64,000 nt of DNA from Escherichia coli (GTDB lineage Bacteria; Pseudomonadota; Gammaproteobacteria; Enterobacterales; Enterobacteriaceae): the NCBI RefSeq assembly GCF_044647545.1, contig NZ_CP172818.1; one strand, written 5' to 3'. A model generated the notes under the pieces. The model was not told the origin of the DNA. It did no database searches and worked only from the letters and a program-made list of their open reading frames with translations. Positions 31,764 to 41,043 of this stretch are shown piece after piece; the first letter of the stretch is position 1; each line of letters starts with the position of its first letter. The position numbers were made by a program, and so were the translations under genes.

Positions 31764-33320
31764 TTACTCATCTTCATCGTGCGCCGGTTGCTCTTTAACA
31801 ATGCGAACCAGATCAACACGATAATCATTGGCTTCAATGATGGTGATATGCAGTGGCCCTACATCAATCACATCGCCCACACGGGGAATGTGACCATTTG
31901 CCGAGATCACGAGGCCCGCGACCGTCGCGATATCATCGTCATCGGCAAGGTGCTCAACATCAAGCGCCTGCTGCAAGGCATGCAAATCTGTACCGCCTTT
32001 TACCAGCCAGCCGTCACCGTCGGTAATGATTTCCGGCGTTTCGTCAGCGTCCGGGAATTCACCCGCAATGGCTTCCAGCACATCCAGCGGCGTGACCAAG
32101 CCTTGTACCACACCAAACTCGTTGGTCACGATAACAAAGCTCCCGCGAGCACGACGCAGCACGCCCAGCAGGTTGATCGGATCGAGGGTTTCCGGGACGA
32201 TAATCGCCGGAGACGCCGAAGCAATCGCCGCCACATCAACGCCCTCTTCCAGCGCCACCAGCAGTTCTTTAGCACGTACGATACCAATGATTTCATCCAG
32301 TTCACCGCGACATACCGGGAACAGACTGTGCGGTGAAGAGAGCAGTTGCTCGCGGATTTCATCGACCCCGAGATTAGCGTCAACCCAGCTTATTTCACCG
32401 CGCGGCGTCATGATCCCGCGCAGAGAACGCGACGCCAGCGTCAATACGCCGTTAATCATGTAACGTTCTTCTTCGGCAAATGCACCTTCCGGGATCGGCA
32501 TCGGCATCGGGTTATCGGCATCGTGCTGGACATTGGCCTGACGTTTCCCGCCCATCAAACGCAGGATGGCATCGGCAGTACGCGCTCGCAGCGGCAAAGT
32601 CGACTGGTGACGAATAAAGTTGCGACGCGCAATCTGGTTAAACACTTCGATGATGATCGAGAAGCCAATAGCGGCATACAGGTAACCTTTCGGAATGTGG
32701 AAACCGAAACCTTCTGCCACCAGACTCAGACCAATCATTAACAGGAAGCTCAGACAGAGCACCACCACCGTGGGGTGCTGGTTAACGAATCGCGTCAGCG
32801 GTTTCGATGCCAGCAGCATAACCGCCATCGCAATCACTACCGCCGCCATCATCACCGGCAGATGGTTAACCATCCCTACTGCAGTAATTACCGCATCCAA
32901 TGAGAAGACGGCGTCAAGGATGACAATCTGTGTGACGACCACCCAGAAACTGGCGTAGCCTTTACCGTGGCCGGAATCATGATCGCGGTTTTCCAGCCGT
33001 TCATGCAGTTCGGTTGTTGCTTTGAACAGCAAGAATATCCCCCCGAACAACATAATCAGGTCGCGTCCGGAGAAGGAGAAATCCATGACGGTAAATAGCG
33101 GTTTGGTCAGCGTGACCATCCATGAAATCAGCGACAGCAGCCCCAGACGCATAATCAGCGCCAATGATAATCCCAGCAAACGCGCTTTATCGCGTTGTTT
33201 TGGCGGCAGTTTGTCAGCAAGAATGGCGATGAAGACCAGGTTATCGATACCCAGCACAATTTCCAGAACAACAAGCGTGAGTAGCCCCGCCCAAATTGAG
33301 GGGTCCATTAAGAATTCCAT
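31764..33320 (-). CDS. yoaE: TerC-family membrane protein with CBS and CorC/HlyC domains, YoaE
   Basis: 518-aa ORF with TerC-like TM N-terminus and CBS pair. Confidence 0.85.
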
Positions 33321-33782
33321 GACAAGCTCCTGCTTAAGGAATAGCTATTCGACGCCAGAAATAATGCAGGCGTAACGACAAAATGCAAACGAAAGGTGCG
33401 GCATAGAGTGCCAGAAAGGCAGGCGTTAAAAGGCCTGATGCTGAAATGACGTCGGTGACGATCCATACTGCGGGCTACTGCCCTATACTCCATGGTTGTT
33501 AAACGGGAGTTAAACATATCAGAGACACATCTGATTTGGCAAAGATTTACCTTCCTTTGCAAACGAATGTGACAAGGATATTTTACCTTTCGAAATTTCT
33601 GCTAATCGAAAGTTAAATTACGGATCTTCATCACATAAAATAATTTTTTCGATATCTAAAATAAATCGCGAAACGCAGGGGTTTTTGGTTGTAGCCCTTA
33701 TCTGAATCGATTCGATTGTGGACGACGATTCAAAAATACATCTGGCACGTTGAGGTGTTAACGATAATAAAGGAGGTAGCAA

Positions 33783-36994: not shown

Positions 36995-37194
36995 GTTATG
37001 AATTTAGCCAAAGCTATGTTTAGTGTATTTTTAATAATCAGACATAGCTTAGGCTATATTACCTCTTCCCTTATTTGTTATTTATTTTAACGTTTCATTG
37101 ATATATAAATCTAAATGAAAATCGTTATCAATAAAGCAATGAAATAATATATTCCAACAGTTGTTTTATATTCTCAAAATATGTTAAGGTTGCG

Positions 37195-40284: not shown

Positions 40285-40358
40285 TTCACCACCTCTGAGT
40301 AGAGGCGCTATTCTACCACTGCTGGAGAGGAAGAAAATCTAGTGCTGAAAAAATGATA

Positions 40359-40502
40359 TCACCACGGGATAAACTGGTTAATGGCACAAATTCCGCTGAA
40401 AAATTGTACATCCTGATCGCACATCATGTTGAATACCTGCGCCCAAAGCAGCAAGCAAGCCAACACCACGACAACCAGAACGACCCATCGAAACTTTTTC
40501 AC
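40359..40502 (-). CDS. mgrB: PhoQ-inhibiting small membrane protein MgrB (47 aa)
   Basis: Hand-translated from a GTG start with GGAG SD: [47 protein letters not shown]; below ORF-track cut-off. Confidence 0.8.
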
Positions 40503-40660
40503 TCCAATCTCCGTTTCACCTACCTTATGTCATTAAACTAGCATGCGTTAGTTAAACAGCGCCTAACTATGTCGATATTCGTGCTTTTTCAGAATGAGTC
40601 GCTTGCTTCAGCGCATATTGCCGCTACGATTAAGCGAACATAAAAAGAGAAGAGGTTGTA

Positions 40661-40900
40661 ATGCGATTCATCATTCGCACAGTTATGCTGATAGCACTGG
40701 TATGGATAGGATTATTACTCAGCGGATATGGCGTTTTGATTGGAAGCAAAGAGAATGCCGCGGGATTAGGTTTGCAATGTACCTATCTGACCGCCAGAGG
40801 CACCAGCACGGTACAATACCTGCACACTAAAAGTGGTTTTCTGGGGATAACAGATTGCCCGTTGTTACGTAAAAGCAATATTGTGGTCGATAATGGTTAA
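40661..40900 (+). CDS. yobH: Small membrane protein YobH
   Basis: 79-aa ORF with signal/TM segment. Confidence 0.8.
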   Translation: MRFIIRTVMLIALVWIGLLLSGYGVLIGSKENAAGLGLQCTYLTARGTSTVQYLHTKSGFLGITDCPLLRKSNIVVDNG

Positions 40901-41043
40901 GGGTAATAAATAACCAGATTCTCACTCATGAGTAAAATATTCTTATCGCAAGTGCGTTTAATATAACGCCACCTTCAACTTTATTTTTCTCATGCTAAAT
41001 AAAGAACCTGTCTGTTTGATATTCAGACAGGTTCTTACTCTCA

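Follow-up and report, generated by a model that had tools for sequence, protein, structure and literature searches.

A probable PhoP box of 11-bp register and a -10 element that share GTTTAA upstream of mgrB in Escherichia coli

Two copies of GTTTAA lie upstream of mgrB in E. coli, and they are explained by two distinct functional elements, a PhoP half-site and a -10 element, which share this spelling in E. coli only. Our analysis of a 64,000-nt stretch of DNA (the window) indicates with high confidence that positions 40503-40660 hold a PhoP-activated mgrB promoter, made up of the box TAGTTA-N5-TGTTTA at 40569-40553 and the -10 hexamer TAGTTT, and probably working by class II activation. The product of mgrB, a small membrane peptide, turns PhoQ off in a negative feedback. 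Loss of mgrB expression, including that due to IS insertions in the promoter, underlies colistin resistance in Klebsiella and trimethoprim tolerance in E. coli.

Two GTTTAA copies and the PhoP box

Positions 40300-40950 of the window are E. coli chromosome, with 100% identity to several RefSeq genomes. A match to this segment, annotated as yobH and mgrB, was present in 5,423 of 5,426 complete genomes. The features of the region are collected in Table 1.

Table 1. Features of the yobH-mgrB region (window coordinates)
Feature	Position	Strand	Remarks
mgrB CDS	40359-40502	-	47 aa, GTG start; from the ORF list and RefSeq 'PhoP/PhoQ regulator MgrB' at 100% identity
yobH	40661-40900	+	
yobH-mgrB divergent intergenic region	40503-40660		158 bp, common to both genes
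Shine-Dalgarno GGAG of mgrB	40509-40512	-	93-100% conserved; 6 nt ahead of the GTG start
PhoP box, promoter-distal half-site TAGTTA	40564-40569	-	canonical spacing; CAGTTA in most genera
PhoP box, spacer GGCGC (5 nt)	40559-40563	-	length invariant (no gaps, 81 aligned sequences), sequence variable
PhoP box, promoter-proximal half-site TGTTTA	40553-40558	-	first hexamer of the first-pass annotation; sits in the -35 region
12-nt linker ACTAACGCATGC	40541-40552	-	between box and -10
Extended -10 TGn motif, TG	40543-40542	-	inside the linker
-10 hexamer TAGTTT	40535-40540	-	contains the annotation's second hexamer, AGTTTA/GTTTAA 40539-40533
Predicted transcription start	A 40530 or conserved A 40528	-	A 40530 from the Salmonella S1 map, transferred by alignment
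Putative sigma-70 promoter of yobH	TTGCTT 40603-40608, 16 nt, TACGAT 40625-40630	+	

On the mgrB strand, the promoter region contains the string CTGTTTAACTAACGCATGCTAGTTTAATGAC at about 40559-40529 (a longer reading is ATAGTTAGGCGCTGTTTAACTAACGCATGCTAGTTTAATGACATAAGG), with GTTTAA at 40557-40552 and again at 40538-40533. The first-pass annotation had noted these two hexamers as a possible PhoP site and counted 19 bp between them; the positions and the spacing, measured start to start, were both borne out. GTTTAA occurs 40 times in the window, counting both strands. Same-strand pairs 6-30 bp apart occur twice, versus 0.31 expected from Markov-1 simulations, and at least one such pair appeared in 26% of simulated windows. 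For any single 158-bp stretch, read on one strand, the expectation is only ~4e-4 pairs. The pair is thus unusual for this spot, and locally non-random.

A search for KGTTTA-N5-KGTTTA with up to two mismatches gave a single match in the intergenic region, TAGTTAGGCGCTGTTTA at 40553-40569 on the minus strand. This box (TAGTTA-GGCGC-TGTTTA, reading from 40569 to 40553) is a direct repeat with 11-bp periodicity, in the same orientation as mgrB. Both mismatches to the consensus fall within the upstream hexamer, an imperfect half-site. The true partner of the first hexamer is therefore TAGTTA at 40569-40564, 11 bp upstream. The earlier proposal of a PhoP site built from direct repeats thus stands for TGTTTA (40558-40553), which is a half-site, and falls for the second hexamer, which is the -10 and was the wrong partner.

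We scored these registers with a position weight matrix (PWM) built from 36 DNase-footprinted Salmonella PhoP boxes (Zwir 2012 Table 1, PMC3335776), leaving out the two yobG boxes. The 19-mer of the canonical box scored 9.9 bits, more than the yobG box footprinted in Salmonella itself (7.4 bits). At 9.9 bits, the intergenic region should hold 0.07 chance matches. The register with the first hexamer as upstream half scored -1.5 bits, and those with the second hexamer as downstream or upstream half scored -2.3 and -7.2 bits, respectively. The canonical box ranks 34 among 127,964 window positions, showing that the matrix is weakly discriminating, as 33 other positions score as high. Because the PWM alone discriminates poorly, the box assignment rests on position and conservation.

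Several of the other PhoP-like matches in the window are described here for completeness. Its top PWM match, ATGTTTAGTGTATTTTTAA (15.9 bits), is at 37016-37034 on the plus strand, between yobD and mntP, where a further match of 12.2 bits is found at 37084-37102; this region is AT-rich, and the matches may be compositional. Between yoaE and manX, positions 33500-33527 of the minus strand hold three PhoP-like hexamers in phase (TGTCTC-N5-TGTTTA-N5-CGTTTA). Their downstream 19-mer, at 13.6 bits, ranks fifth in the window and is found ~180 nt before the yoaE start at 33320. Nearer to mgrB, the minus-strand sequence CTTTTTATGTTCGCTTAAT at 40629-40647 scored higher than the box (10.7 bits) and was rejected for its lack of conservation and its overlap with the leader and ribosome-binding region of yobH.

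Downstream of the box, the second hexamer coincides with the -10 hexamer offset by one base; put differently, two A's next to the -10 hexamer complete the second GTTTAA. At the -35 position the letters are GCTGTT, with no usable -35 element. A scan for canonical sigma-70 promoters found none in 40503-40660, as expected, because the promoter is activator-dependent with weak hexamers. The layout of a class II promoter of architecture I or II is present, with a direct-orientation box placed 12 nt before the -10 and overlapping a poor -35. Transferred from the Salmonella map, the start would fall at A 40530, 5 nt past the -10; A 40528 is 86% conserved.

These elements suggest the following mechanism. 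A head-to-tail dimer of PhoP~P would bind the direct repeat, in the same orientation as mgrB and centered ~31 bp before the predicted start, and would stand in for the absent -35 hexamer. The dimer would recruit RNA polymerase to a weak extended -10 (TG-C-TAGTTT, 40543-40535) lying 12 nt past the box. The extended -10 would supply the remaining polymerase contacts, with class II activation the most likely mode. Transcription would begin near 40530-40528 and yield a leader of ~27 nt with the GGAG ribosome-binding site, and the MgrB produced would exert negative feedback on PhoQ.

Conservation among Enterobacterales and variation within E. coli

To compare the region among relatives, we collected 80 mgrB loci from about 20 enterobacterial genera (among them Enterobacter, Klebsiella, Kluyvera, Kosakonia, Raoultella, Buttiauxella, Cedecea and Lelliottia). 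The orthologue search used a two-sequence probe alignment of MgrB, and these 80 loci come from genera other than Escherichia, Salmonella and Citrobacter. Salmonella was added by exact-protein match, and the set of 84 promoters used for regular-expression searches takes in E. coli and three Salmonella. The box region aligned without indels across the orthologues, and likewise in Salmonella. Measured against the window in the 80 orthologues, the core G/T/T/A of half-site 1 (40567-40564) was conserved at 100/98/93/100%, and G/T/T/T/A of half-site 2 (40557-40553) at 100/100/98/100/98%. The TG at 40543-40542 was 97-98% conserved in the same set.

The -10 region gave a different picture. Its T, A and final T (40540, 40539 and 40535) were conserved at 87, 98 and 100%, while the inner G, T and T of TAGTTT and the next A were conserved at only 12, 5, 12 and 6%, most genera having TAACCT-G. 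In other genera the hexamer aligns with TAACCT, TATCCT or TAATTT. The E. coli -10 region reads TAGTTTAA, versus TAACCTGG in most other genera, and GTTTA over the -10 was found in 1 of the 84 promoters, that of E. coli. Because the conserved letters match those of a -10, and because GTTTA at this place is present in E. coli only, the second GTTTAA is an E. coli-specific spelling of a TAnnnT -10 rather than a conserved PhoP half-site.

The whole arrangement was then expressed as one pattern, NNGT[TG]A-N5-NGTTT[AG]-N9-TG-N-TANNNT, which was matched exactly by 73 of the 84 promoters. In these full-geometry orthologues, the proximal half-site was (G/T)GTTTA in 71 of 73, and the commonest -10 spelling was TAACCT (42 of 73). 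Departures were seen in nine Buttiauxella, which keep the box, spacing and TG and have a -10 of the CA/AAnnCT type; in locus L078, which keeps the box and TAACCT and lacks the TG; and in locus L049, which has diverged.

Within E. coli, a 93-bp promoter query matched 5,422 genomes at 95-100% identity. SNPs in the sampled variants, K-12 included, fall at 40591, 40600 and 40514. None of these lies in the box, the linker or the -10, and over these three elements K-12 is identical to the window. Because the sampled variants leave them unchanged, the literature on the K-12 promoter applies to the window. One clinical strain from human urine, FXCREC035, has an IS5 (locus L087, 1566-2809) in the linker that joins the PhoP box to the -10, and the duplicated target is CTAA, 40551-40548. 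Such an insertion would be expected to free mgrB from PhoP control. In resistant lab-evolved strains, IS elements are known to have inserted between the PhoP site and mgrB, and a base-level map of box, linker and -10 aids the reading of promoter mutations in clinical genomes, such as this IS5.

Alternative readings of the second hexamer and of the upstream block

Could both TGTTTA-like hexamers, 19 bp apart, form an atypically spaced operator? Each matches (T/G)GTTTA well, and chance alone would rarely give such a pair in a stretch of 158 bp. Yet 19 bp does not correspond to one helical turn or to two, and an 11-bp register holds for all 38 footprinted boxes in Table 1 of Zwir 2012 (PMC3335776), in agreement with the annotation's own doubt that this spacing suits PhoP-box periodicity. 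Moreover, a canonical and conserved partner for the first hexamer exists 11 bp upstream, and the GTTTA of the second is confined to 1 of 84 orthologues. We regard this operator as extremely improbable. The annotation had itself named a better box within 40503-40660 as evidence against the pair, and such a box is what we found.

A related idea keeps the second GTTTAA as an extra, low-affinity PhoP site over the -10, specific to E. coli, that might limit mgrB at high PhoP~P. By analogy, Salmonella ugtL has a second box over its -10, and PhoP-activated promoters of such layout have been described (Zwir 2012, PMC3335776); AGTTTAA is also good as a single half-site. However, this half-site lacks a partner 11 bp on either side, as the negative scores of both its 19-mer registers indicate, and the letters conserved outside E. 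coli are exactly those of a -10. Such a site therefore seems very unlikely. The same low probability attaches to its evolutionary version, in which the change from TAACCT/TAATTT to TAGTTTAA would have put a lone PhoP half-site into the -10, where it would compete with RNA polymerase at very high PhoP~P. If true, the lone half-site would set a lineage-specific ceiling on the MgrB negative-feedback loop. The reading that fits best is still the single box at 40569-40553 followed by an extended -10.

A further alternative adds to this box rather than replacing it. In Salmonella, yobG (=mgrB) has a weaker reverse PhoP box, 62 from +1 (PMC3335776), and E. coli mgrB may likewise be of architecture II, with a second reverse box at 40584-40602 (plus strand), about 62 bp before +1, adding activation. 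The footprinted Salmonella box GTTTTTAGGAATGATTCAC aligns with CTTTTTCAGAATGAGTCGC of E. coli, with 14 of 19 positions identical by manual count, and within the block ATTC and AAA reach 95-98% conservation. The matrix argues otherwise. The E. coli 19-mer at this position scored -7.8 bits, and the best match over the 60 nt preceding the main box scored -3.6 bits. Across orthologues, the median best score in the same 60 nt was 2.9 bits, no better than the 2.5 bits of shuffles. In addition, the conserved letters fall largely in the spacer of the supposed box, and some of the adjoining conservation fits a divergent yobH promoter. We consider a second activating box in E. coli unlikely, and the single-box promoter remains our preferred reading.

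The conserved block itself spans 40584-40596, with minus-strand ATTC at 40595-40592 and AAA at 40589-40587, both 95-98% conserved in 80 species. With the back-to-back promoters of mgrB and yobH on either side, it could be a UP-like element or the site of another factor. At position 40591, within this block, the window has T versus C in K-12 and other sampled E. coli (CATTCTGAAA versus CATTCCGAAA), and C is present in 62% of other genera. For the putative yobH promoter, the pattern TTGNNN-N16-TANNNT, with a fixed 16-nt spacer, was found in 64 of 84 orthologous regions, and its TTG is 96-98% conserved. We also considered whether yobH might use the Salmonella reverse box, 23 nt from the putative yobH -10, as a PhoP site of its own, of the architecture III type. 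This was unsupported: the E. coli score of -7.8 bits speaks against it, as does the report that yobH is apparently not regulated by PhoP/PhoQ (Banda et al. 2019).

Comparison with Salmonella yobG and other PhoP-activated promoters

The promoter described here is an ordinary one and already known; descriptions of its operator go back more than two decades, and no new regulation follows from our analysis. Kato, Tanabe and Utsumi reportedly described a Mg2+-responsive mgrB promoter in E. coli K-12 in 1999, and Minagawa et al. are said to have defined the PhoP box in E. coli in 2003. Later papers credit Kato 1999 and Minagawa 2003 for mgrB as a PhoP target and for the definition (T/G)GTTTA-N5-(T/G)GTTTA. 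An E. coli PmgrB fragment also serves in the literature as a gel-shift positive control or probe for PhoP~P. It is from the literature, too, that PhoP binding and the dependence on Mg2+ and PhoP are taken, whereas the geometry, the conservation and the homology to the footprinted Salmonella site were observed directly in the sequences.

The closest known system is Salmonella yobG, whose promoter was mapped by S1 nuclease and DNase I footprinting (Zwir 2012, Mol Microbiol 84:463, PMC3335776). Its transcription is phoP- and low-Mg-dependent (PMC3335776). The activating box, A-CAGTTA-CTCCT-GGTTTA-A, is directly oriented, with 12 nt between it and the -10 TAATTT, and is placed 31 from +1 (PMC3335776); the distance from -10 to +1 is 5 nt (Zwir 2012 Tables 1 and 2, PMC3335776). 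We found the reported yobG sequences and distances in a Salmonella locus (L081) with kdgR-yobH-mgrB-yebO synteny. The E. coli promoter resembles that of yobG in the orthologous gene and region, the orientation, (C/T)AGTTA-N5-(G/T)GTTTA, the 12 nt, the TGn and a weak -10 of the form TA...T. It differs in the letters, with TAGTTA/TGTTTA and -10 TAGTTT versus CAGTTA/GGTTTA and -10 TAATTT. The leaders are of similar length, 26 nt in yobG (Zwir 2012 Tables 1 and 2, PMC3335776) and about 27 nt predicted for E. coli. The second, reverse box reported for yobG could not be recognized by PWM in E. coli. Both the footprint and the start site are carried over to E. coli from Salmonella, so A 40530 would be the start by analogy, with the conserved A 40528 as the other candidate, and the class II contact is likewise a prediction.

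Comparable promoters are found beyond yobG. Those of architecture I (mgtA, phoP, slyB, yrbL and pmrD) have a single direct box located 11-12 nt before the -10 and over the -35 (PMC3335776). Class II activation is predicted for this group and has been demonstrated for mgtA (Zwir 2012, PMC3335776). The mgrB promoter is similar, its direct-orientation box being 12 nt before the -10 and overlapping the -35 position. Yet both half-sites are near-perfect in mgtA and phoP (submotif S1), whereas mgrB has a degenerate upstream half-site (S2-like) and appears to rely on its extended -10.
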